Source: Clostridia bacterium
GTDB lineage: Bacteria; Bacillota; Clostridia; Oscillospirales; CAG-272
NCBI GenBank assembly: GCA_017428635.1
Contig: JAFRQK010000046.1
Location: 4,874 to 68,873, forward strand
Direction: 5' to 3'
Length of the DNA stretch: 64,000 bases
The notes beneath the pieces were generated by a model, which was not told where the DNA came from, did not search any database, and worked only from the letters and a program-made list of their open reading frames with translations. Within the stretch, counting starts at the first letter, position 1, and every line of letters starts with the position of its first letter. The translations under genes were made by a program, and so were the position numbers. Below are positions 45,350-55,045 of this stretch, in pieces.

Positions 45350-45436
45350 GCGGATATGGCGGAATTGGCAGACGCGCTAGATTCAGGTTCTAGTCGGGGC
45401 AACTCGGTGAAGGTTCAAGTCCTTTTATCCGCACCA
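45350..45436 (+). tRNA. tRNA-Leu (anticodon CAG), CCA encoded
   Basis: Manual cloverleaf: acceptor GCGGATA/TATCCGC, anticodon arm CTAGA-TTCAGGT-TCTAG, long variable arm, T-loop GGTTCAAGTCC. Confidence 0.9.
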
Positions 45437-45557
45437 AACAGTACAAATCCGAACCCTAAGCCGGTTGGCGAAGGGTTCGGATTTGTTGTTTATTTCGACT
45501 ATCCGAATTTCAACTCCAAGCAAGACAAACAGAAAATGAAAAACGGAGGTCAAGAAA

Positions 45558-45854
45558 ATGAATCTGAACATTGGTAACATTGGAGTCTGGGGATTCCGGC
45601 ACTATGATTATCTCAAGCAAAACCGCCCGTCAACCGTCGGTGTGATGCGCATGAACGGAACGCTTGAAGGGTATCTCAAAGAGGTCAATCAAGAAGCAAC
45701 GGAAATGCTTGAAACGCTTATCCGGCAATATGCAAAGGCGGAAGGCGTCACGGAGGCACTTAAACGCACAGATCAACTCGGCTGGGTGCTAAAAATGAAC
45801 TCCATCCGCAACCGCGCCGAAGAGGTTATACTAAACGAAATCATATACCGGTAA
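45558..45854 (+). CDS. TnpV-like transposon protein (N-terminally short)
   Basis: 98 aa. ...YLKQNRP...GTLEGYLKEVNQEATEMLETLIRQYAKAEGVTEALKRTDQLGWVLKMNSIRNRAEEVILNEIIY matches, from memory, the C-terminal roughly 90 aa pattern of TnpV of Tn4451-type elements. Confidence 0.55.
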   Translation: MNLNIGNIGVWGFRHYDYLKQNRPSTVGVMRMNGTLEGYLKEVNQEATEMLETLIRQYAKAEGVTEALKRTDQLGWVLKMNSIRNRAEEVILNEIIYR

Positions 45855-45895: not shown

Positions 45896-46180
45896 CTATT
45901 CCTTAGTATCCTCTTTCTTTAATATAATATAACTGCAACTTTTTCCGTTTGCCATTCTTATTACCCGCGCTGTTGATATTTTCCTTCCATGCGCTGCATT
46001 CATTTGACGTTTCGCTACTCCGCTTCTGTAATGACTTTTTAATCTTGGGGTTGCATGTGCGGATCCCTTCGAATATTTTAGTCCTATAGAGTCCAAATAC
46101 CTAAATATTTCTTCTTTAGTCATTTTTGAAAACATTTCATCAATTGATGAAGATACATTCAACTTACTCATTAACATCAC
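45896..46180 (-). CDS. Hypothetical small basic protein, overlaps the 3' end of the upstream gene
   Basis: About 91-94 aa and AT-rich. Candidate starts are at 46177 and 46171, overlapping the stop of ORF 46164..46685. No recognisable motif. Confidence 0.5.
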   Translation of the reverse strand: MMLMSKLNVSSSIDEMFSKMTKEEIFRYLDSIGLKYSKGSAHATPRLKSHYRSGVAKRQMNAAHGRKISTARVIRMANGKSCSYIILKKEDTKE

Positions 46181-46685
46181 CTTTCTTTATCATATGTAAA
46201 TATTTTATTGGGGTGTTATTTCTTATGCAAAACTCTTTTCTTCGTTTCCGAGTATCTATAAGCGTTTTATGAGCACGCTTTGTTACTGCAAAACTTGCGG
46301 TCATCAATTCTAATTGAGGTTTTGAATCCCAAATAACCTTAGCGATAGAACACTGGTTTTGCTCAGCATCCTTATCAAGTGTTATATTTAGTTTTTTACA
46401 CAAATGGTTTTCAGCTTCACTAAGAGCTTCTTTCCCTTCATCCGTGTCAAGATCAAGAATACTCTTTTCATCAACACGTAGTATAGCCAATACTACTGCA
46501 TCTGAATCTCTCCAATTCCAAGCGTCATTAAAATTGTAATAAAAATATATACCGGGTCCAAGCCAATCGTTTTTAGAGTTTGAAAGAATAAATTTACGGC
46601 TAGACATAATTTCACTAGCAGAAGATATATTTGTTCCATGAAATCCTGAAAATAATACTTTGCCCACTGTTTTTCTCCTTAACAT
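46164..46685 (-). CDS. Hypothetical protein with possible ADP-ribosyltransferase-like (H-Y-E order) motifs
   Basis: 173 aa containing GFHGT...WLGPGIYFY...RKEFCIRNNTPIKYLHMI, which by eye resembles the PARP-type H..Y..E arrangement and is also reminiscent of DUF3990. The CDS itself is well supported (ATG, AAAGGA SD). Confidence 0.45.
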   Translation of the reverse strand: MLRRKTVGKVLFSGFHGTNISSASEIMSSRKFILSNSKNDWLGPGIYFYYNFNDAWNWRDSDAVVLAILRVDEKSILDLDTDEGKEALSEAENHLCKKLNITLDKDAEQNQCSIAKVIWDSKPQLELMTASFAVTKRAHKTLIDTRKRRKEFCIRNNTPIKYLHMIKKGDVNE

Positions 46686-46835
46686 AATCCTTTATTTATC
46701 CTTTATTTCAAAAAAACAAATGCTTTGGCGTCCTTGTCTATTCCATCAATCAGTTTTGCAGAAGATATTCTCCTTACAAATTAGAGCAAAGCAGATAGTC
46801 CAACAGTTTGATCTTCATAGTGTGCTACTAATTGT

Positions 46836-47249
46836 TTATTTCACGGCACTTGTTTTATCAGATTGTTTATTACGACTGCTTTTCCACTCTTCAAATTCGC
46901 GTTTTCCTTCTTCTGATTCAAAAAACGCGCGGATATCGGGGAGCATATCGTCCACTATAGCTTGCAGGACGTATTTCGGCACATTGCATTCAGCGCGACG
47001 CTCGCGGAATGTATATTTGAATTGTACACGCAGCCGTGCCCAGAAACCGCCGTGTTCATACTCCTGAATGTCCTTCCAGTACGGCTCCAATCGTTCGGCA
47101 ACAGCTTTTTTGAACTCCCGGTCGATCTCCGCAGCCCGACCCTCGCCGAGCATTTCCGCAACCCGCTTCCTGCCGTACTGCTTCTCCATTTCAGCCAGTT
47201 GGCGCTTCACTTCAAATATCGTGTATTTCTGTAATATCTCTTTTCCCAT
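46836..47249 (-). CDS. Hypothetical protein (mobile-element backbone gene?)
   Basis: 137 aa with higher G+C than its neighbours. It lies directly downstream of structured-repeat copy L, mirroring how the recombinase sits downstream of copy R. Confidence 0.6.
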   Translation of the reverse strand: MGKEILQKYTIFEVKRQLAEMEKQYGRKRVAEMLGEGRAAEIDREFKKAVAERLEPYWKDIQEYEHGGFWARLRVQFKYTFRERRAECNVPKYVLQAIVDDMLPDIRAFFESEEGKREFEEWKSSRNKQSDKTSAVK

Positions 47250-47261
47250 AAATGTCTCCGT

Positions 47262-47498
47262 TCCTGCGGGGTATTAGGGGTGCGGGTGTCCGGTGGACAC
47301 CTCTGCCGGAGGCAGAAGCACCGACCGAGGCGGCAGCCGAGACCTCGCTAACAAGCAGCTGACGAGGCAGGCGTTGTGTTTGCGCAAGCAAACGCGATGC
47401 TTGCCGAAGTAATGCCGGGTATTTGGCTATCCAATTACGTTGCTTGTGAAGGTGTGCCGCCGGATTTGTACGTACAAATCCAGTGCTTGCTAAAACAA
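47262..47498 (-). ncRNA. Structured repeat, copy L (candidate leader/ncRNA)
   Basis: Its reverse complement aligns with 53242-53540. Conserved blocks are separated by hairpins whose differences are compensatory. Confidence 0.5.
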
Positions 47499-47511
47499 AC
47501 ATATTATATTG

Positions 47512-48444
47512 TTAATTGTTATTGTTTTTTATGTTGTGCTCTTCAATGTATTTCAAAAGTTTTGGTTCAGTCATTACTTCGTCATATTGAGACAAGTGCA
47601 TTTGCATACCTTTAATATCGGAAACTGCATCTTTTACAAAGGTCTCGAAGTCTGTATTTGTTTCTACTAATCTATCAACAGTATCCCAATCTATTTTCTC
47701 TCTTTCTCTAGCAGAAAACAATATCTCGCTCTGCTCAATATTTTCAGCATTCAACTTAATGAACCCAATGCCAAATGCATTATTTAATCTAAGCATTTCT
47801 TCGTATAGTTCAGTATCATCCTCATATGATAAAGCAACGAGGTATCCTTCATTTGCCCAGCTTGAATTAGATACAGCCTGAAAGAAATATTCACGTAGAT
47901 TTGAAAAGCAAATTGTTTTTTTTAATTCAAACGAAAACAATTTGAATTTGCTGTCATTTAACGCTTCCAGTAAATTCGTCGTCTGTTGCGAATAGTCATT
48001 GAATGGAAAGTAAACTCCAACCATATCTGGATGAAGCCACTCGTTCTCCCCGCGTTTCTTCTTCTTAGATTTTTCGTGGAAAATCGTTTTCGTTACACAG
48101 TTAAAATGACCATCTGCATAAACAAAACTCGCTAACAAAGGGTGAAGGTCTCTTTCCTTAAAACTTAATTCATCATTGGTTACTTCCGATGTCTTTTTAG
48201 GAACAATGCTTAGATCTTTAATGTAAAAAGTTGCAGGCCTTTTACTGTATTGATATAACCTTGATTGAGGATTATCTCGTATATCAAGATAAACTCTGGC
48301 CGCAATAGTTTTTACTGGAGTTTTTCCAATTGATGATAGTTTATCCCTAAACCCGTATTCTCCAGCTTTCTTCCATATTTCTTCAATGGAAAGCGGAGAT
48401 TGATGCTTTTCGAGTGTCAAATATACTAAATCAAGAAAAGTCAT
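47512..48444 (-). CDS. HARE-HTH domain protein with C-terminal PD-(D/E)xK-like nuclease domain
   Basis: The N-terminus LSIEEIWKKAGEYG...GKTPVKTIAARVYLDIRDNP...FYIK looks HARE-HTH-like. The C-terminus has ERDLHP...WLHPDMVGV...FSFELK...QAVSNSSWA (D...ExK...Q). I use the ATG at 48444; the track ORF starts at GTG 48450. Confidence 0.6.
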   Translation of the reverse strand: MTFLDLVYLTLEKHQSPLSIEEIWKKAGEYGFRDKLSSIGKTPVKTIAARVYLDIRDNPQSRLYQYSKRPATFYIKDLSIVPKKTSEVTNDELSFKERDLHPLLASFVYADGHFNCVTKTIFHEKSKKKKRGENEWLHPDMVGVYFPFNDYSQQTTNLLEALNDSKFKLFSFELKKTICFSNLREYFFQAVSNSSWANEGYLVALSYEDDTELYEEMLRLNNAFGIGFIKLNAENIEQSEILFSAREREKIDWDTVDRLVETNTDFETFVKDAVSDIKGMQMHLSQYDEVMTEPKLLKYIEEHNIKNNNN

Positions 48445-48454
48445 TTCCACACCC

Positions 48455-48931
48455 CTAAATCTTAGGTATCATTGTCGATGCTTCGGGAGCATTTTTAGTG
48501 ATGCTCCAAACAGCAACCTTCATCTTTTTGATACGCTTTCCGTCGCCGAAATCAAGCAAGTCTTCTCTTTTATAAACATTGAGTATTTTGTTCAAGGTTC
48601 CAAGATCCGCTGAGGTCATTAAAAAAGCTTCTTCCGGATCTATCAATTTGCAATACGCCCATAACTGACCCAGATCTCTAAGCGTTAAACTTGTAATTTT
48701 AGCCTCGATGAAAAAGAGCTTAAATCCTTTAGCATTCCTGACAATACCAAGCACATCTATTTGGATATCAATTCCAGTAGCAACGTCGTGGACAATACCA
48801 TATCTGCGTAAGACTCTGTCGAGCCTTTCGCTATGCGCATCCACAACAATCACTTCGTCATTTTTATATTTGTCTTTTAAGTACGTTTCCAACCATTGAC
48901 ACATAGGTGGATATAAGTCAAATTCTTTCAT
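48455..48931 (-). CDS. Small PD-(D/E)xK-type nuclease-fold protein
   Basis: 158 aa containing GIDIQIDVLGIV...KLFFIEAKI (D-x-n-E-x-K), the restriction-endonuclease-like core pattern. Confidence 0.5.
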   Translation of the reverse strand: MKEFDLYPPMCQWLETYLKDKYKNDEVIVVDAHSERLDRVLRRYGIVHDVATGIDIQIDVLGIVRNAKGFKLFFIEAKITSLTLRDLGQLWAYCKLIDPEEAFLMTSADLGTLNKILNVYKREDLLDFGDGKRIKKMKVAVWSITKNAPEASTMIPKI

Positions 48932-48936
48932 TTAAT

Positions 48937-49824
48937 TTACTCTCCATACCCAAGCGCTGCCGCAATATCTTTCCAGGAATTATAGTGGTTTCCCTTGATT
49001 TCAACAGGCAGAAAATCGTCATTTTCTCCAGGATGTATCGGTTTAACTTTTGTTTTTCCCGCACCTTCCCAATAATACTTATGTGTTACATCCTCGACTC
49101 TTTTTCCTTCATCGGCAAGGCCGTTTTTCAATTCATTAGAAAACTGATCTAATGCTTCTCGTTTATGGATTACACCAAACCCGACCGGAACAAATTCATT
49201 AGCCCATATTTTGATCTGGTGCTCTTTTTTCCAAAAATCCGGCTTTCCTTCATTGTACTTTGATAAATTTCCATCGCGCATATTAGGATGTGCCCAATCT
49301 ATTGCTTGAACCGGAATGTCCACATCTTTCAGCAATTTGCAAACATCTACTACCAAATACCAATTATGCGGCACTTCAATGTACACTCTATGCATATATG
49401 GCTTAAAGAAATAGTTGCTTCTTCTAATGTAACCTGTAACATCAGCAAAACCTTGAAGGAAAGAAATCTTTTGATCTCTTGAGAATCGAAACACCTCGTT
49501 ATCAATCCTTATGTTTTCATGAGAAGCAGCATTTCCAACAAATCTAATTATTTCTCGCATTAAATAGTCATCATTTGGCTTAACAAACGAAATAATCGAA
49601 TAGTTATCCTGTTGCGTGAACGATAATCCCGTTCCAACAAGTGGCTCGATGATTGAACGTATATCAGTTATACTGGCTCGAACATAAATTCTGACATCGT
49701 TATTGTTTTCTGTAGCAAGTTTTTTGTGTGGAATTTCAATGGAAATTGTCGTCTCAAATTGTCCCCTTTTTATTTCGCCGTTTCCGCATATCATTCCAAG
49801 CAAATATGACATTTCTCTATTCAT
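48937..49824 (-). CDS. Hypothetical protein with two degenerate LAGLIDADG-like motifs
   Basis: 295 aa. SYLLGMICGNGEI (aa 6-18) and ISFLQGFADVTGYI (aa about 119-132) are spaced like a two-domain LAGLIDADG enzyme. The canonical acidic residues are replaced (N and T). Confidence 0.4.
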   Translation of the reverse strand: MNREMSYLLGMICGNGEIKRGQFETTISIEIPHKKLATENNNDVRIYVRASITDIRSIIEPLVGTGLSFTQQDNYSIISFVKPNDDYLMREIIRFVGNAASHENIRIDNEVFRFSRDQKISFLQGFADVTGYIRRSNYFFKPYMHRVYIEVPHNWYLVVDVCKLLKDVDIPVQAIDWAHPNMRDGNLSKYNEGKPDFWKKEHQIKIWANEFVPVGFGVIHKREALDQFSNELKNGLADEGKRVEDVTHKYYWEGAGKTKVKPIHPGENDDFLPVEIKGNHYNSWKDIAAALGYGE

Positions 49825-49841
49825 TAGCTATCTCCACTCTC

Positions 49842-50189
49842 TCAATTCAAACCGATTTTGTAACCAATTTTGAGTAATTCTGAAATCACCCCATTATCAT
49901 TTAAGCGATATTTATACTCGCTTCGATACACAGTATTGCGAGTAAACATCTTTAATAATGCAGTTGGTGGCGTTTCGGGAACATAAAGGCGTAATTCAAG
50001 TCCCCATTTATTAGCGTTGTTTTCAAGAAGTATGATTCCTTCACTTTGATCATCAATTCTTCCCCTATGAGTAGCGTTGTAATTAATAATAAAGTTGTTA
50101 ATTGCTCCCGGCTTTCCTTCGGCTTCAATAAAGAATGAATTACCTTTTGAAGAAATATCACGCAAAAAATCGATCAGTTTGTCTATCAT
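49842..50189 (-). CDS. Hypothetical protein (about 115 aa), weak paralogue of neighbouring ORFs
   Basis: I place the start at ATG 50189 behind AAAGGAG (MIDKLIDFLRDISSKGNSFFIE...). The LRLYV...RLNDNGVISELLKIGYKIG pattern resembles ORF 50203..50658. Confidence 0.55.
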   Translation of the reverse strand: MIDKLIDFLRDISSKGNSFFIEAEGKPGAINNFIINYNATHRGRIDDQSEGIILLENNANKWGLELRLYVPETPPTALLKMFTRNTVYRSEYKYRLNDNGVISELLKIGYKIGLN

Positions 50190-50202
50190 AAATAAAACTC
50201 CT

Positions 50203-50658
50203 TTACAAATTATAGCCTTTTTCAAATTCATCCATTAGATGTGGATGGTGTTTTCTTACTGCATCACGAATAGCAACAACATCCTGGTATTCTCCAAATG
50301 AAAAACCATAGTCACGAACCACTTTTTCAACAAATTTACCCTTATTTATGCGTTTAACATATGATCCTGTGCCCACTCCAAGAAAAGGAATAAGCACTTG
50401 TGGACAGTTTCGGATGTTATGGAAATATATACGCAATTGGCATCCTTGTTTCATAACATTCCCACCGGTTGTCTCGCCCTGTGTTATCGGGAAATATGGC
50501 GCATTGGGGAACTCTCTTTCAAAAATGAACCCCTTCTCTTCAGGGATTTGAGCTTCGATCAATCCTATACGACCCGGTGCCGCAAGGTATCCCAAGATTA
50601 AACATAGGTCTTTTTCAGGTACTGAAATATCTAAAGCACGATTGCTCAATAGTGACAT
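50203..50658 (-). CDS. Hypothetical protein (151 aa), weak paralogue of neighbouring ORFs
   Basis: LILGYLAAPGRIGLIE (LAGLIDADG-like helix). LRIYFHNIRNCPQVLIPFLGVGTGSY resembles VRIYVRASITDIRSIIEPLVGTGLSF of ORF 48937..49824. Confidence 0.55.
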   Translation of the reverse strand: MSLLSNRALDISVPEKDLCLILGYLAAPGRIGLIEAQIPEEKGFIFEREFPNAPYFPITQGETTGGNVMKQGCQLRIYFHNIRNCPQVLIPFLGVGTGSYVKRINKGKFVEKVVRDYGFSFGEYQDVVAIRDAVRKHHPHLMDEFEKGYNL

Positions 50659-50662
50659 GGAC

Positions 50663-51436
50663 TTACTCCTTTATGAATATCAAGAGATATTCGTGTATTT
50701 TATTGATTCTAAATTTATATGGATATCCTAACGGACGCATATTGTTATAATCTTGTTGTCTGTCCCAAATGATTAGGTCGTCATAGACAAAGCCTATGCT
50801 TTTAAGAGCAGACGCCAAATCACTATGCAATGGATAAAAAGAGCTCTTTTTTCTTATATCCATCACATTTACAATGCAGTAAGATCCTTTTTTCAGCACT
50901 CTATGAACAGATGAAAAAAGCGTCGTAAGCGATTGGATAAACTCATCGTAGTTTGGAATATTGCCAATATCGGTTTTTTTATCAGAATAATTTACAGAGT
51001 CTTTTTGATCGGCACTTCTTTTCATATTTAGAATATCCCAATACGGTGGCGAAGTGACGCAAATGTCAAAATAATCATTTGGAAGCGTTTTGAGAACAGA
51101 AAAACTGTCTCCGTTTATAATGCGAATTCCGTTAGTGTTGCCAATGCGATCCATGGCTACCTTACAAAAATCTTCTGATAAATCTATTCCAACCGCTTCA
51201 CGATTCTGCAATTTAGCAGCAACTGTCGTTGAACCAATACCATTGAATGGATCAAGCACCCGTCCGTCCGGTTTAGAAAAAGTACGAATGATCTTTTCAC
51301 ATAATTCTACAGGGTAAGAAGCCGGATGCTTCAATGCCTTTTCTTCTCTTGTTTTTGATATATCTCTCCAAATGCTAAATGAATTCTGGAGCCATTCTTT
51401 TCCAGAAAGGTCGTTACATTTTTTAGAGTTGTCCAT
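50663..51436 (-). CDS. DNA methyltransferase, N4-cytosine/N6-adenine type (PF01555-like)
   Basis: HPASYPVEL...VLDPFNGIGSTTVAA (AdoMet motif I) precedes TSPPYWD (catalytic motif IV). I use the ATG at 51436 behind AAGGTGG; the track ORF starts at TTG 51442. Confidence 0.85.
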   Translation of the reverse strand: MDNSKKCNDLSGKEWLQNSFSIWRDISKTREEKALKHPASYPVELCEKIIRTFSKPDGRVLDPFNGIGSTTVAAKLQNREAVGIDLSEDFCKVAMDRIGNTNGIRIINGDSFSVLKTLPNDYFDICVTSPPYWDILNMKRSADQKDSVNYSDKKTDIGNIPNYDEFIQSLTTLFSSVHRVLKKGSYCIVNVMDIRKKSSFYPLHSDLASALKSIGFVYDDLIIWDRQQDYNNMRPLGYPYKFRINKIHEYLLIFIKE

Positions 51437-52835
51437 CTGCAATCCACCTTTTTGATTGAATCCTTTTCATTTCAGAATCAATGAAATCCGATTCTTTTTT
51501 TGTAATATTATAAGCCGCATATACAATTTGATTTAATTGCTCTAAACTGTTAAACCAATCTTGGTTCATATAGTCATCAGATTCCAAACTGCCAACTAAC
51601 TTCAAGATTTGTTCAAAATACTGATCCTGAAGTTTTCTGCAGGGTAGAGGTATTTTCTTGAGGTATTTCGCATCGGTATGCATAGTCAACTTTGAGTAAT
51701 TGTAACAATACTTGTATAAGAACAAATTGCAAAGTCTGGAGTGTAGTATTCCGAGAATATAGTGACACATTTTCGGATCACCGTCAGTAAAAACCGTAAC
51801 GGTTTGTGAAGCTTCTAAATTCCCGCCGAACGCTGCTATTACACCAGCCTCAGCGCTATATATATTCTGTATAAATAACGTGTTTCCCTCTGTTGGCAAA
51901 TCGTGGTCTTTGTACCCGAATTTCCGAATGTCTTTGCCGGTAATTGCTTCTTTCGATGTTGACCTTCCGCGTCCAACGTATCCATTGCAAACATCATTCA
52001 ATGTTTTATATGAAGTTGATAACTTTTTGTAAATTGAAAAATCTTCAGAACAGTTAAAAATCAAAATTGTGTCATTATAAAAACTTTGTGGAATAGATGT
52101 CATCGTAACAAATCTATTACTTGAGTATTTTTTTATTTTGATTTTATGATTTTTATCAGCTTTAGCATTTTTAATGGTTAAAACAATCTGCTCACCGCGA
52201 ACATGCTTAAAATATGCTCCAAGATCAACAATTGAAACAATAGATTTTTCCTCAAGTAATTCACGCCTAAACAAACTATAAGAATGAACATGAAGAAAAT
52301 TCTTTGGGATAATATATGAAACCAATCCATTGGGCTTAACGAGGTCCAGCGCACGCATGAGAGCCGCAACAAAAAGATTGTTTCCGGAATCCGACACTCT
52401 ACGTCTAAACAAATAATCGGATTGTAATACGACTTCCGAAGTCAACGGGACATATGGCGGGTTTCCTATAATAATATCAGGATGAACGTCTAAACAAAGA
52501 TGCGAAAGAGTGACGGTTGCATCATTGCCAATTGAATCATCGGCCACAAAGAAAGCTCCGTGTATATTGTTGCGGCAAAAATCAATGGCGTTGTTGTCTT
52601 GATCAATTCCATAAACGTTTTCACACCCATGTTTAATTGCAGCATAAACAAATACGCCAGCGCCACAACATGGATCCAAGATCACAGATGATTTATCCGG
52701 ATTAAGTTCAAAAAGCATTTTTTCGGCAAGAGATAAGTCAGTATAATAAATGCCATTGTCCTTTTTAAAATCTGAATCAAGAGAGCTTTCATAAACATTC
52801 GAAGCATCAATATATGCATTCTGAGCAAGTGACAT
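51423..52835 (-). CDS. N6-adenine DNA methyltransferase, gamma class (Eco57I/TaqI-like) with C-terminal target-recognition domain
   Basis: GIYYTDLSLAEKM, ILDPCCGAGVFV (motif I) and IIGNPPYV (motif IV); 470 aa; AAGGAGGG SD. Confidence 0.9.
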   Translation of the reverse strand: MSLAQNAYIDASNVYESSLDSDFKKDNGIYYTDLSLAEKMLFELNPDKSSVILDPCCGAGVFVYAAIKHGCENVYGIDQDNNAIDFCRNNIHGAFFVADDSIGNDATVTLSHLCLDVHPDIIIGNPPYVPLTSEVVLQSDYLFRRRVSDSGNNLFVAALMRALDLVKPNGLVSYIIPKNFLHVHSYSLFRRELLEEKSIVSIVDLGAYFKHVRGEQIVLTIKNAKADKNHKIKIKKYSSNRFVTMTSIPQSFYNDTILIFNCSEDFSIYKKLSTSYKTLNDVCNGYVGRGRSTSKEAITGKDIRKFGYKDHDLPTEGNTLFIQNIYSAEAGVIAAFGGNLEASQTVTVFTDGDPKMCHYILGILHSRLCNLFLYKYCYNYSKLTMHTDAKYLKKIPLPCRKLQDQYFEQILKLVGSLESDDYMNQDWFNSLEQLNQIVYAAYNITKKESDFIDSEMKRIQSKRWIADGQL

Positions 52836-52852
52836 TGTAAGCCCTCCTTCAA

Positions 52853-53074
52853 TTAATTCTGGCTTTTTTCTGTAATGTCCATAATATCGCCGATATTACA
52901 TTCCAAAACACCACAAATCTTCATCATGACTTCCATAGATACCGGTTGATTTTTACTGAGTTTAGACAATGTAGTTGAACCAATTCCTGTAGCTTCTTTT
53001 AATTGCATTTTCTTCATGTTTTTGTCTATAAGCAATTTCCAAAGTTTGTTGTACGTAACAGCCAACAGTATCAC
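52853..53074 (-). CDS. XRE-family HTH protein (controller/C-protein-like)
   Basis: VTYNKLWKLLIDKNMKKMQLKEATGIGSTTLSKLSKNQPVSMEVMMKICGVLECNIGDIMD. It is the first gene of the operon. The true start may be the TTG at 53065, downstream of GAGGTG. Confidence 0.8.
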   Translation of the reverse strand: MILLAVTYNKLWKLLIDKNMKKMQLKEATGIGSTTLSKLSKNQPVSMEVMMKICGVLECNIGDIMDITEKSQN

Positions 53075-53094
53075 CTCATTTCAAATCTAATAGT

Positions 53095-53162
53095 ATTATA
53101 TCATATCTTCCGATAGAATGCAATATAAAATCGATAATAGAAAAGAAAATTTTCTATTATCG
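53095..53162 (-). promoter_or_regulatory. Operon promoter plus upstream 13-bp-arm palindrome (C-box-like operator)
   Basis: Minus strand reads TTGCAT-17 nt-TATAAT (53123..53095). CGATAATAGAAAA-5 nt-TTTTCTATTATCG (53132-53162) lies just upstream of the -35. Confidence 0.5.
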
Positions 53163-53241: not shown

Positions 53242-53540
53242 TGTTTCAGCAAGCACTGGAAAATGTGTACATTTTCCGGCGGTGCTGTTTCGGCAAGCAT
53301 CGTGCTTTGACTCCACCGGAGCAAAACACCACGGCATTGCCTTCACAAGCAACGACTTTGGACTCCCACGTCCAAAGTCAGACTTGCTCGCAGCTCTGCA
53401 AGCATCGCGGAATGATATCATTCCGCACCCGCTTGCTTCGCCCGCCGCTTGTTAGGGAGGTCTCGGCTGCCGGCTCGGTCAGTGCTTCTGCCTACGGCAG
53501 AGGTCTCCACCGGAGACCCGCACCCCTAAAACCCCTGCGA
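53242..53540 (+). ncRNA. Structured repeat, copy R (candidate leader/ncRNA upstream of the recombinase)
   Basis: Homologous to the reverse complement of 47262-47498. A long-range helix pairs AAGCACTG (53251-58) with CAGTGCTT (53480-87), and several internal hairpins show covariation. Confidence 0.5.
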
Positions 53541-53575: not shown

Positions 53576-55045
53576 ATGAAAGGCGTGATCTACGCAAGGT
53601 ATTCCAGCGACAATCAGCGTGAAGAGTCTATCGAAGGTCAGATCCGTGAATGTAAGGCTTTTGCCTACAAAAACGGAATCGACATTATTGAGATCTACAT
53701 CGACCGTGCGTTGTCAGCAAAAACGGATAACCGACCCGATTTTCAGCGGCTGATCAAGGAAAGCGGAAGCAAGAAGTTTGAAGTCTTGCTCGTATGGAAA
53801 CTCGACCGTTTCGCACTGAACAAGTTCGACTCGGCGCACTACAAACGGATCCTGAAAAACAACGGTGTTCGTGTTGTATCGGCAACCGAAGTGATATCGA
53901 CCGGTCCCGAAGGGATCTTGCTTGAATCAATGCTCGAGGGAATGGCGGAATACTATTCAGCCGATCTTTCGGAAAAGGTCATGCGCGGACAGACCGAAAA
54001 CGCACTGAAATGTATGTATAACGGCGGTACGCTCCCAATAGGGTACGTCATCGACAAGGAACAGCACTTTCAGATCGATCCGGTCGCGGCACCGCTGGTA
54101 TTGCAGGCGTTTACCGATTACTCAAACGGCAAGTCGATGCGTGAAGTAACGGACATGCTGAATCTTGCAGGAATCCGCACCAAGCGCGGCGGAAAGGTCA
54201 GCATCAACAGCGTGACGAGAATGCTGCATAACCGCAAGTACATTGGTGAGTATCAATACCGCGACATCGTTCATCCGCACGGAATCCCGGCGATCGTCCC
54301 GGAAGAACTGTTTGAACGCGTACAGGAACGATTGGCTAAAACAAAGAAAGCCCCTGCCAAGTTCAAGGCAGAAGACGAGTATCTGTTAACGACCAAACTG
54401 TTCTGCGGCAAATGCAACTGTTATATGGCGGGAGAATCCGGCACGAGCCACACGGGCATCGTTCATCGGTATTACAAATGCGTGAGCGTGAAGAACCATA
54501 AGGGCTGCGACAAAAAGTCTGTACAAAAAGAGTGGATCGAAAATCTCGTCATCGACCAGATCAAAAAGATCCTGTTCGACGATGAAATGATCGAAAAACT
54601 CGCGGATATGGGCATGGAACGTCAGCGCAAAGAAAACACGGTGCTTCCCATGCTGAAACGCCAGCTTGCCGAAACGGAAAAAGGCATCCGCAACTTCGTT
54701 GACGCGATCCAGCAAGGGATCATCACGGAATCGACGAAGGAGCGGCTTGAAGGGTTGGAAAGAACAAAGAAAGAGCTTTCTGCTCAAATCGCACGGGAAG
54801 AATTACTCCAACCGCCGGAATTCACACGGGATCAGTTCCTGTTCTGGTTCGAGCGGATGCGCAAGTACGACACCACGAAACTCGTTCACCGTCGCCGTCT
54901 GATCGACAGCTTTGTCAACGCGATATACCTTTACGACGACAGGATCACCCTCGTCTTCAATTTCAAAGACGGCACAAAAACGATAACTTTCGCCGAGCTT
55001 GAGGAATCAGGCTTGGGTTCGGATATAAATGCACTCGCTGCATAA
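53576..55045 (+). CDS. Large serine recombinase
   Basis: MKGVIYARYSSDNQ (catalytic Ser), resolvase domain, recombinase domain, zinc ribbon CGKCNCYM...YYKCVSVKNHKGC, and a coiled-coil C-terminus; 489 aa; AAGGAGGTG SD. Confidence 0.95.
   Translation: MKGVIYARYSSDNQREESIEGQIRECKAFAYKNGIDIIEIYIDRALSAKTDNRPDFQRLIKESGSKKFEVLLVWKLDRFALNKFDSAHYKRILKNNGVRVVSATEVISTGPEGILLESMLEGMAEYYSADLSEKVMRGQTENALKCMYNGGTLPIGYVIDKEQHFQIDPVAAPLVLQAFTDYSNGKSMREVTDMLNLAGIRTKRGGKVSINSVTRMLHNRKYIGEYQYRDIVHPHGIPAIVPEELFERVQERLAKTKKAPAKFKAEDEYLLTTKLFCGKCNCYMAGESGTSHTGIVHRYYKCVSVKNHKGCDKKSVQKEWIENLVIDQIKKILFDDEMIEKLADMGMERQRKENTVLPMLKRQLAETEKGIRNFVDAIQQGIITESTKERLEGLERTKKELSAQIAREELLQPPEFTRDQFLFWFERMRKYDTTKLVHRRRLIDSFVNAIYLYDDRITLVFNFKDGTKTITFAELEESGLGSDINALAA

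Follow-up and report, generated by a model that had tools for sequence, protein, structure and literature searches.

A candidate type II restriction-modification operon whose proposed endonuclease pairs a LAGLIDADG-fold protein with a small PD-(D/E)XK-type protein

The 64,000-nucleotide stretch of DNA analyzed here (contig JAFRQK010000046.1 of Clostridia bacterium assembly GCA_017428635.1, positions 4,874 to 68,873; hereafter, the window) carries an operon of eight open reading frames (ORFs) on its minus strand, at 47512-53065. In order of transcription, these encode a controller (C) protein, two DNA methyltransferases (M1 and M2) and five further proteins, p4 to p8 (Table 1). The operon is presented as a candidate type II restriction-modification system whose endonuclease would be formed by p6 and p7, and it is compared with 85 related loci from metagenome contigs and species-representative genomes. 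An original prediction, made from the nucleotide sequence of the window, had described eight packed genes with ribosome-binding sites behind a single promoter, and this layout is real: start codons were chosen behind a GGAG-like Shine-Dalgarno (SD) sequence, which is present for every gene, the intergenic gaps are 4-17 nt, and the sole overlap is that between M1 and M2.

Table 1. Features of the operon and its surroundings, with positions in the window
Feature	Position	Strand	Remarks
Promoter TTGCAT-17-TGnTATAAT and palindrome	53095..53162	-	Extended -10; presumed C-protein operator
C (controller) protein	52853..53065	-	~70 aa; TTG start, GAGGTG SD; Cro/C1-type helix-turn-helix (HTH)
M1, gamma-class N6-adenine DNA methyltransferase	51423..52835	-	FxGxG-type DPCCGAGVF and NPPY motifs; C-terminal TaqI_C-like recognition domain
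M2, PF01555 amino-methyltransferase	50663..51436	-	SPPY; motif I ahead of motif IV
p4, accessory protein of the "P45" family	50203..50658	-	151 aa; predicted alpha/beta fold
p5, accessory protein, p4 paralogue (P45 family)	49842..50189	-	115 aa; ATG at 50189, AAAGGAG SD
p6, double-LAGLIDADG-fold protein, proposed large DNA-recognition subunit	48937..49824	-	295 aa; both canonical catalytic acids replaced
p7, proposed small catalytic subunit	48455..48931	-	158 aa; PD-(D/E)XK-type motif D59...E76-A-K78
p8, HARE-HTH accessory protein	47512..48444	-	310 aa; PD...ELK near C-terminus, by eye; co-transcribed here
Large serine recombinase	53576-55045		Flanks the operon
TnpV homologue	45558-45854	+	Flanks the operon on the other side
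tRNA-Leu(cag)	45350-45436		Followed by the hairpin, then by the TnpV homologue
Hairpin	45443-45486
Inverted repeat, left arm	47268..47373		106 nt; 89% complementary to the right arm
Inverted repeat, right arm	53430..53535		Ends ~40 nt ahead of the serine recombinase gene

The original prediction had found no recognizable classical restriction enzyme among the products, and searches of PADLOC, NCBIfam, Pfam and PDB sequences bear this out for p4 to p8, a HARE-HTH domain in p8 aside. In particular, p4 to p7 have no significant match in Pfam, NCBIfam, PADLOC or PHROG, scans with family consensus sequences were negative, p8 has no significant family match beyond HARE-HTH, and p6 retrieved nothing from PDB sequences at E<=10. 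Structure prediction was more informative for p6. Its AlphaFold 2 model (predicted local distance difference test, pLDDT, 89.1; predicted template modeling score, pTM, 0.90) has a monomeric double-LAGLIDADG fold. Foldseek placed I-AniI, the bI3 maturase, I-DmoI, PI-SceI, I-OnuI and WhiA at the top of the matches (E 1e-6 to 2e-4, probability 1.0), and the 50 best PDB matches are LAGLIDADG proteins without exception (50/50). The two LAGLIDADG helices of p6 read L-L-G-M-I-C-G-N15-G and L-Q-G-F-A-D-V-T130-G, with conserved glycines at G10/G16 and G125/G131. Position 8 of the motif, which is the metal-binding Asp or Glu in active enzymes, is N15 in the first helix and T130 in the second. Both residues are invariant in 69 close homologues, and an acidic residue occupies this position in 0/39 p6 relatives of less than 50% identity, which carry R/K/N and T/A/G/C/S there instead. 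Judged at the sequence level by the criteria used for WhiA (PMC3384342), the canonical active sites of p6 are dead. Measured against LAGLIDADG homing endonucleases, p6 lacks the catalytic acids, and its gene has neither an intron or intein context nor that of a free-standing homing site. Two further differences are the conserved WAHPNMRD...KKEHQIK insertion and a tail of ~60 aa.

Homologues of p6 form 1821 clusters at 90% identity; the best 120 of these are 65-91% identical to p6, and a Pfam domain was found in none of the 120. When 1.84 billion cluster representatives were searched with a profile, 306 p6 relatives were returned. Some proteins of ~1000-1300 aa end in a p6-like dead-LAGLIDADG module (L088:1211-4186, listed as P0180, together with P0184, P0185, P0199 and P0246), and outside this module they have no Pfam match. 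The large gene of locus L088 adjoins a PF01555 methyltransferase gene and one for an 1853-aa helicase of the DEAD/RecQ type. From these sequences, larger methylation-linked systems of other kinds seem to have taken up the p6-like module as well.

The gene for p7 follows that for p6. Residues D59, E76 and K78 of p7 are invariant in 43 sequences and constitute a conserved D...(D/E)xK triad. YhcG_C (PDDEXK) matches were obtained for 15 of these 43 family members, the best at E 0.011, below the cut-off. A family scan with the p7 consensus sequence gave no match, the p7 sequence found two chance matches only among PDB sequences (E 1.5), and the p7 profile found none there. The original prediction had proposed two PD-(D/E)xK-like proteins, p7 and p8, the latter fused to a HARE-HTH. 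The HARE-HTH of p8 is supported by PF05066 (E 2e-9); the PD-(D/E)xK character of both proteins was read from motifs, to which p7 adds the sub-threshold YhcG_C matches. The putative nuclease motif of p8 had no hidden Markov model (HMM) match, p8 found nothing among PDB sequences, and the hhalign comparison of p7 with p8 was insignificant.

The genes for p6 and p7 are closely coupled. Homologues of p7 form 2931 clusters, and in 85/85 loci with readable flanks a p7 homologue of 56-85% identity starts within a few to ~35 nt past the p6 stop codon. Natural p6~p7 fusions also occur: about 22 cluster representatives at 50% identity, with lengths of 539-557 aa, contain both, and their C-terminal portions match the p7 profile with E values down to 2e-26. 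In L086:1187-3354 and L087:592-2701, the gene for a p6~p7 fusion of 541-557 aa has another p7-like gene, unfused, behind it (E 5e-22 and 9e-20, respectively). This free gene encodes 165 aa with a PD...ELK motif, which reads KPDVLGI...RELK in the L086 copy. Methyltransferases accompany the fusions as well, with PF01555 and N6_Mtase/Eco57I/TaqI_C enzymes in L086 and a PF01555 enzyme in L087, where a truncated ORF follows at the contig end. Further neighbors are MarR-like and PDDEXK_1 genes in L086 and an Mrr_N gene in L087. The p6 and p7 proteins are an inseparable, highly conserved pair.

Apart from the LAGLIDADG motifs, the p6 superfamily keeps another polar cluster, including in relatives below 50% identity. 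It consists of D128, R146, N154, the W-[GA]-H-P-N motif (H179-P-N181), E201-H202 and K221; a role as non-canonical active site, as metal site or as docking surface for p7 is conceivable. If the cluster were catalytic, the pair might act as a class-III-like heterodimer, in which p6 recognizes the site and nicks through D128, H179, N181, E201 and H202 while p7 cuts only the second strand, as in BtsI, BsrDI and BspD6I. We consider this unlikely. In its favor, the cluster is retained in relatives of less than 50% identity, whose DNA specificity must surely differ, its place is on a beta-beta-alpha element (beta3, beta4, A-N-E-F) that recalls His-Me fingers, and the subunit masses of 34.2 kDa for p6 and 18.2 kDa for p7 resemble the 38 and 18 kDa of BtsI (PMC3017599). 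However, the fused relatives combine a PD-(D/E)XK-type module in the fusion with a free-standing one, and so already have one site for each strand. Moreover, p6 is matched by no HMM of a nuclease family, and among relatives the stretch from H179 to E201 varies in predicted secondary structure or is deleted. A direct reading of the AHPNMRDGNL...EH segment of p6 as an HNH or His-Me motif was tried and set aside, given a spacer that is variable or deleted in relatives and the lack of a clean beta-beta-alpha-Me finger in the prediction; it is kept as a rival only.

The methyltransferase genes that precede p4 to p8 are of two classes, as originally described. M1 matches PF07669 (Eco57I, E 2.9e-16), PF02384 (N6_Mtase, E 2e-14) and the PADLOC model MTase_II (E 6.6e-26), and its NPPY motif is present in 64/64 members of the family. 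M2 matches PF01555 (E 3.6e-35) in two permuted stretches and carries DPFNGIGS and SPPY, the latter present in 52/52 family members. The S-adenosylmethionine (AdoMet) motif of M2, DPFNGIGS at residue ~64, stands ahead of SPPY at ~131; this order explains why the PF01555 profile was matched as two swapped stretches and marks M2 as a circularly permuted amino-methyltransferase. The SPPY motif suggests that M2 is probably an N4-cytosine methyltransferase. Both enzymes possess intact catalytic motifs, as is called for in the methyltransferases of a type II system. Following a check that had been proposed with the original prediction, all products were compared with PADLOC: PglX/mad2 models were matched by the methyltransferase domains alone, p4 to p8 had no match at E<1e-3, and signature proteins of BREX, MADS and DISARM were not found.

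Four family combinations supply the methyltransferases of the related loci. The gamma-class N6-adenine enzyme (M1) occurs with the SPPY enzyme (M2) in 50 loci and with a C5-cytosine methyltransferase in place of M2 in 12; an EcoRI-like N6-adenine enzyme with a C5 methyltransferase is found in 13, and a single fused EcoRI-like~C5 methyltransferase in 6. Across the loci, adenine-type enzymes bear NPPY or NPPF, and cytosine-type enzymes bear SPPY or PCQ/ENV. Nearly every untruncated locus has exactly one enzyme of each type, the sole exception being L052, for which no M2 ORF was called. A pair made up of one adenine and one cytosine enzyme, drawn from four interchangeable combinations, implies an asymmetric target, in agreement with what the two classes had originally been taken to indicate. 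The residues of the p6 beta-saddle are identical across all four methyltransferase classes, so that non-homologous methyltransferases seem to protect the same target. A "GAAT-like" target, suggested by the EcoRI-like methyltransferase, serves as a lead only.

The control region of the operon resembles that of known C-protein systems. The C protein matches PF13443 (HTH_26; Pfam, E 8.6e-19), which agrees with its original description as C-protein-like, and the predicted TTGCAT-17-TATAAT promoter with its palindrome is present. This perfect palindrome, CGATAATAGAAAA-TTTTC-TTTTCTATTATCG, with arms of 13 nt, lies at 53132-53162 next to the -35 box, and a third half-site, CTATCG, sits within the promoter spacer. 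A generic promoter scan missed the TTGCAT box because just 3/6 of its positions are identical to TTGACA. The layout CGATAG..TATATCG, TTGCAA, CTATCG, TGnTATAAT is also seen upstream of the C genes in L006-L017, L053 and L069, and TTGCA(A/T)-N17-TATAAT with CGATA/TATCG half-sites recurs upstream of C in about 11 related loci. Recurrence of this layout in front of homologous C genes argues for a conserved operator and promoter and against a chance match. Homologues of the C protein with 77-91% identity lead the same operon in 12 loci, and homologues with 43-50% identity lead a few more; in all, a C gene is present in just 16 ORF sets, and most relatives of the cassette have none. At the sequence level, the operon of the window has the small HTH regulator and the presumed palindromic operator at the regulator's own promoter that are expected of C-protein control.

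Carriers of the cassette were found among Clostridia, Lachnospiraceae, Bacteroidales, Treponema, Campylobacter, Endomicrobia, Synergistaceae, Desulfovibrionaceae, Anaerolineaceae and Alphaproteobacteria. Cultured carriers include Lactiplantibacillus plantarum P9 (plasmid NZ_CP060181), Merdimmobilis hominis An559, Anaerotignum neopropionicum DSM 3847, Treponema socranskii ATCC 35536, Butyrivibrio sp. X503 and Hominisplanchenecus murintestinalis DSM 111139. A 6.5-kb plasmid cassette of Lactiplantibacillus plantarum consists solely of a 700-aa fused methyltransferase, p6 and p7; these three genes also occur in a Lachnospiraceae phage, there with hypothetical ORFs behind them. Instead of a restriction enzyme, the p6-p7 pair could regulate in a methylation-coupled manner, take part in repair, or be a selfish module of the homing or addiction type that rides with the methyltransferases. 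Dead LAGLIDADG proteins such as WhiA and maturases do serve in regulation or as chaperones of RNA (PMC3384342), Foldseek matched p6 to WhiA (3hyi) among others, and conservation across phyla (60-91%) is unusually high for a restriction enzyme. Three observations nevertheless make a function outside restriction very improbable in our judgment: the fixed association, in an operon under C-protein control, with a methyltransferase pair that is strand-complementary, the carriage on plasmids, phages and transposons, and the exchange of non-homologous methyltransferases around a constant p6-p7.

Beyond the p6-p7 pair, ORF clustering revealed that gene content varies between loci. The original prediction had proposed three weakly related LAGLIDADG-like proteins among the five downstream products, and had recommended structural models to follow this up. 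The p6 model and its Foldseek matches sustain the proposal for p6 and do not extend to p4 and p5, for which it is not confirmed. The AlphaFold 2 model of p4 is confident (pLDDT 94.1, pTM 0.88) and has an alpha/beta fold, yet Foldseek returned no significant match for it; the best E values were 0.31 (PDB) and 0.057 (BFVD), and LAGLIDADG entries appeared only at E>0.5. Profile comparison with hhalign identified p4 and p5 as paralogues (93% probability, E 3e-7), which we designate P45, and gave insignificant scores for either against p6, whether its halves or its tail (probability below 10%; 4-8% for p4). Members of the P45 family are present in 0, 1 or 2 copies per locus, upstream or downstream of p6-p7. 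The p5 homologues, of 111-119 aa, are upstream or downstream or absent, and both p4 and p5 are missing in about 14 loci. A related protein, c7, is a P45 domain fused to a nuclease-like NOV_C domain (PF13020). It was found in 13 loci, including L037:6926-7999 and L028:3751-4776, where it fills the slot between the methyltransferases and p6 that p4 and p5 hold in the window; its N-terminal domain is homologous to p4 (hhalign, 99.7%). The p8 gene follows p7 in 8/86 loci. Two other genes adjoin the cassette elsewhere as further optional neighbors: c9, with an SfsA-like nuclease domain (PF03749), in L008:3906-4583 and 10 other loci, and c12, encoding a 120-aa protein without a Pfam match, in L066:10122-10487 and 8 others. 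By hhalign, p7 against c7 and c12 against all other families gave insignificant scores; significant links were confined to p4 with p5 and to p4 and p5 with the N-terminal domain of c7. In a gut-metagenome contig (L091:2162-4370), p6 is identical to that of the window, no p4 was called (gap 2162-2636), and p7 is shorter, at 149 aa; this gene set may reflect decay of the cassette in some strains.

These data address the original proposal that the five extra proteins form one obligate system. All eight products could belong to a single multi-subunit defence complex that requires p4, p5 and p8, and the translational packing of all genes behind one promoter, the recurrence of the order p4-p5-p6-p7 in roughly 20 closely related loci (redundant contigs counted) and the fusion of P45 to NOV_C in c7 at the same operon position are consistent with it. 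The neighborhood comparison recommended with the prediction speaks otherwise. Only p6 and p7 co-occur universally (85/85); p4 and p5 vary from 0 to 2 copies, being both missing in some loci and single or moved downstream in others, p8 is rare, and the plasmid cassette contains none of p4, p5 and p8. We therefore think an obligate eight-protein complex improbable. The claim of a methylation-linked system survives, with an endonuclease architecture that appears undescribed and without five obligate extra proteins, and the gene-content comparison indicates that p4, p5 and p8 would be optional accessory genes and no core subunits.

Taken together, a constant p6-p7 pair with adenine and cytosine methyltransferases, carried on plasmids, phages and transposons and sometimes placed under C control, is a pattern characteristic of type II restriction-modification at an asymmetric site. 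Our preferred reading, which we regard as probable although well short of assured, is a C-protein-controlled type II system acting at an asymmetric site, with a heteromeric endonuclease made of a LAGLIDADG reader (p6) and a PD-(D/E)XK cutter (p7), and with optional accessory genes. At one and the same asymmetric site, M1 would methylate one strand and M2 the other, and p6 with p7 would constitute the restriction endonuclease. The p6 scaffold, its canonical sites dead, would read the sequence through its beta-sheet saddle and recruit p7, which would cut unmethylated DNA, probably as two copies; two p7 modules per site are proposed because another p7-like gene stands free beside the fusions. The C protein would delay endonuclease expression until methylation is in place, and p4/p5 and p8 would be add-ons, acting as modulators or as an independent nuclease.

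Several points weigh against this reading. The 14-40 bp that LAGLIDADG proteins normally read would be an unusual target length for a restriction enzyme. The assignment of p7 as a nuclease comes from a short motif and sub-threshold Pfam matches, and its profile finds nothing in PDB sequences. The polar cluster of p6 could be a non-canonical active site, so that the role of p6 may extend beyond recognition. Finally, the co-occurrence of p6 and p7 was counted in loci gathered with p6 as bait.

To our knowledge, restriction endonucleases have been assigned to a few folds only, namely PD-(D/E)XK, HNH, GIY-YIG, PLD and half-pipe. An endonuclease composed of a dead LAGLIDADG protein and a small separate nuclease appears to be undescribed, as a two-protein core and no eight-protein machine. 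A literature search, with REBASE outside its scope, found no LAGLIDADG-fold restriction enzyme, and a 2014 review of type II enzymes makes no mention of LAGLIDADG. Whether p6 and p7 represent the first class of restriction endonuclease on a LAGLIDADG fold, widespread and with a detachable PD-(D/E)XK cutter, and P45 a new modulating fold, is a question on which we stand evenly balanced. If they do, the class would span thousands of clusters in Bacillota, Bacteroidota, Spirochaetota, Campylobacterota and Elusimicrobiota, as well as plasmids and phages, so far invisible to Pfam, NCBIfam and PADLOC. It would fill an evolutionary gap that separates homing endonucleases from restriction-modification systems, and would explain thousands of "orphan-looking" double-methyltransferase loci of gut and rumen that defence finders score as methyltransferase-only. 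A naturally split reader/cutter enzyme would also invite engineering into nicking or reprogrammable enzymes. As optional decorations make up the greater part of the eight genes, what needs testing is narrowed.

The setting of the operon is that of a mobile island, as had been proposed from its foreign composition and a neighboring recombinase. GC makes up 35-38% of the operon and 55-62% of the surrounding host DNA, and a large serine recombinase and a TnpV homologue flank it. Serine recombinase and TnpV beside tRNA-Leu look, by sequence, like a Tn4451-like mobilizable element that carries the operon as cargo, and TnpV adjoins the p6-p7 cassette in about 10 related loci as well. The operon is bracketed by an inverted repeat (Table 1), whose similarity continues, more weakly, beyond 106 nt to ~240 nt (about 47263-47500 and 53300-53540). 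A bracketing repeat of this kind was found in none of the 85 related loci, and an Rfam scan of the flanking repeats found nothing except tRNA; the repeats could delimit an invertible segment or be an insertion scar. Between p8 and TnpV lie three small minus-strand ORFs (45896-47249), which are AT-rich island cargo: 137 aa at 46836-47249, 173 aa at 46164-46685 and 94 aa at 45896-46180. The 173-aa ORF matches PHROG 14664 (E 2.9e-11), a family without assigned function.

Functionally, the closest known systems are BtsI and BsrDI (class III of Chan, Stoddard and Xu 2011), heterodimeric type IIS enzymes with subunits of 38/18 and 56/25 kDa and two methyltransferases (PMC1950550, PMC3017599). As proposed here, they have two methyltransferases, one for each strand of an asymmetric site, and a large recognition subunit with a small catalytic partner of ~18 kDa, from which no activity is expected on its own. 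Both sides also have relatives in which the two are fused into a single chain, BsmI/Mva1269I there and the p6~p7 proteins of 540-557 aa here. The operon might accordingly be thought an ordinary member of the BtsI/BsrDI/BsmI family, for which the two methyltransferases, large and small subunits of comparable size (PMC1950550, PMC3017599) and a p7 segment, E76-X12-Q89, loosely like the E-X12-QR motif of the family would speak. The large subunit of that family, however, begins with an EcoRI-like PD..E..QR nuclease domain in addition to its own recognition domain, and BsmI is built of EcoRI-like, central and FokI-like domains in its structures 9EZ5 and 9F38 (PMC11889245). Here the large subunit is a double-LAGLIDADG protein whose model lacks an EcoRI-like domain and whose 50 best PDB matches are all LAGLIDADG proteins. 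Neither p6 nor p7 has detectable sequence or fold similarity to the BsmI structures (p7 by sequence only); searches of PDB sequences at E<=10 with p6, p7 and the p7 profile gave two chance matches only, though BsmI structures are in the PDB. The gene order also differs, being M1-S-M2-L in BtsI and M-M-L-S here, and one methyltransferase here is cytosine-specific, the two of BtsI being described merely as amino-methyltransferases. Membership of this family, considered for its subunit sizes and its two methyltransferases, was rejected on fold and sequence grounds, the comparison being made via the BsmI structures, and we judge it the most improbable of the alternatives.

The p6 protein shares with the homing endonucleases I-AniI, I-DmoI, I-OnuI and PI-SceI its two LAGLIDADG-type helices with conserved glycines. 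It differs from them in that its gene is never in an intron or intein and is always paired with p7, alongside methyltransferases. WhiA/DUF199 and the LAGLIDADG maturases, of which 3hyi and 2ab5 (bI3) are among the Foldseek matches, resemble p6 in being scaffolds that lost the acidic catalytic residues and were reused for binding (PMC3384342). Unlike p6, WhiA has a C-terminal HTH, and it belongs to a housekeeping locus, whereas p6 is encoded in a mobile restriction-modification operon and its partner is a putative nuclease.

Modification of the Eco31I/Esp3I/Alw26I type is said, in work of Bitinaite et al. from 1992, to consist of adenine and C5-cytosine methyltransferases, either separate or fused. 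The present loci resemble these systems in that an adenine and a cytosine methyltransferase would guard complementary strands, as two genes or one fused gene. They differ in that M1 scores 61.6 bits against TIGR02987, for which the cut-off is 353.5. The Eco31I, Esp3I and Alw26I endonucleases are single-chain HNH enzymes. With C systems of the PvuII, AhdI and Esp1396I type, the operon shares a small HTH gene in first position and palindromic C-boxes, conserved in related loci, that touch or overlap the promoter; the C gene here differs from theirs in preceding the methyltransferase genes as well as those of the endonuclease.

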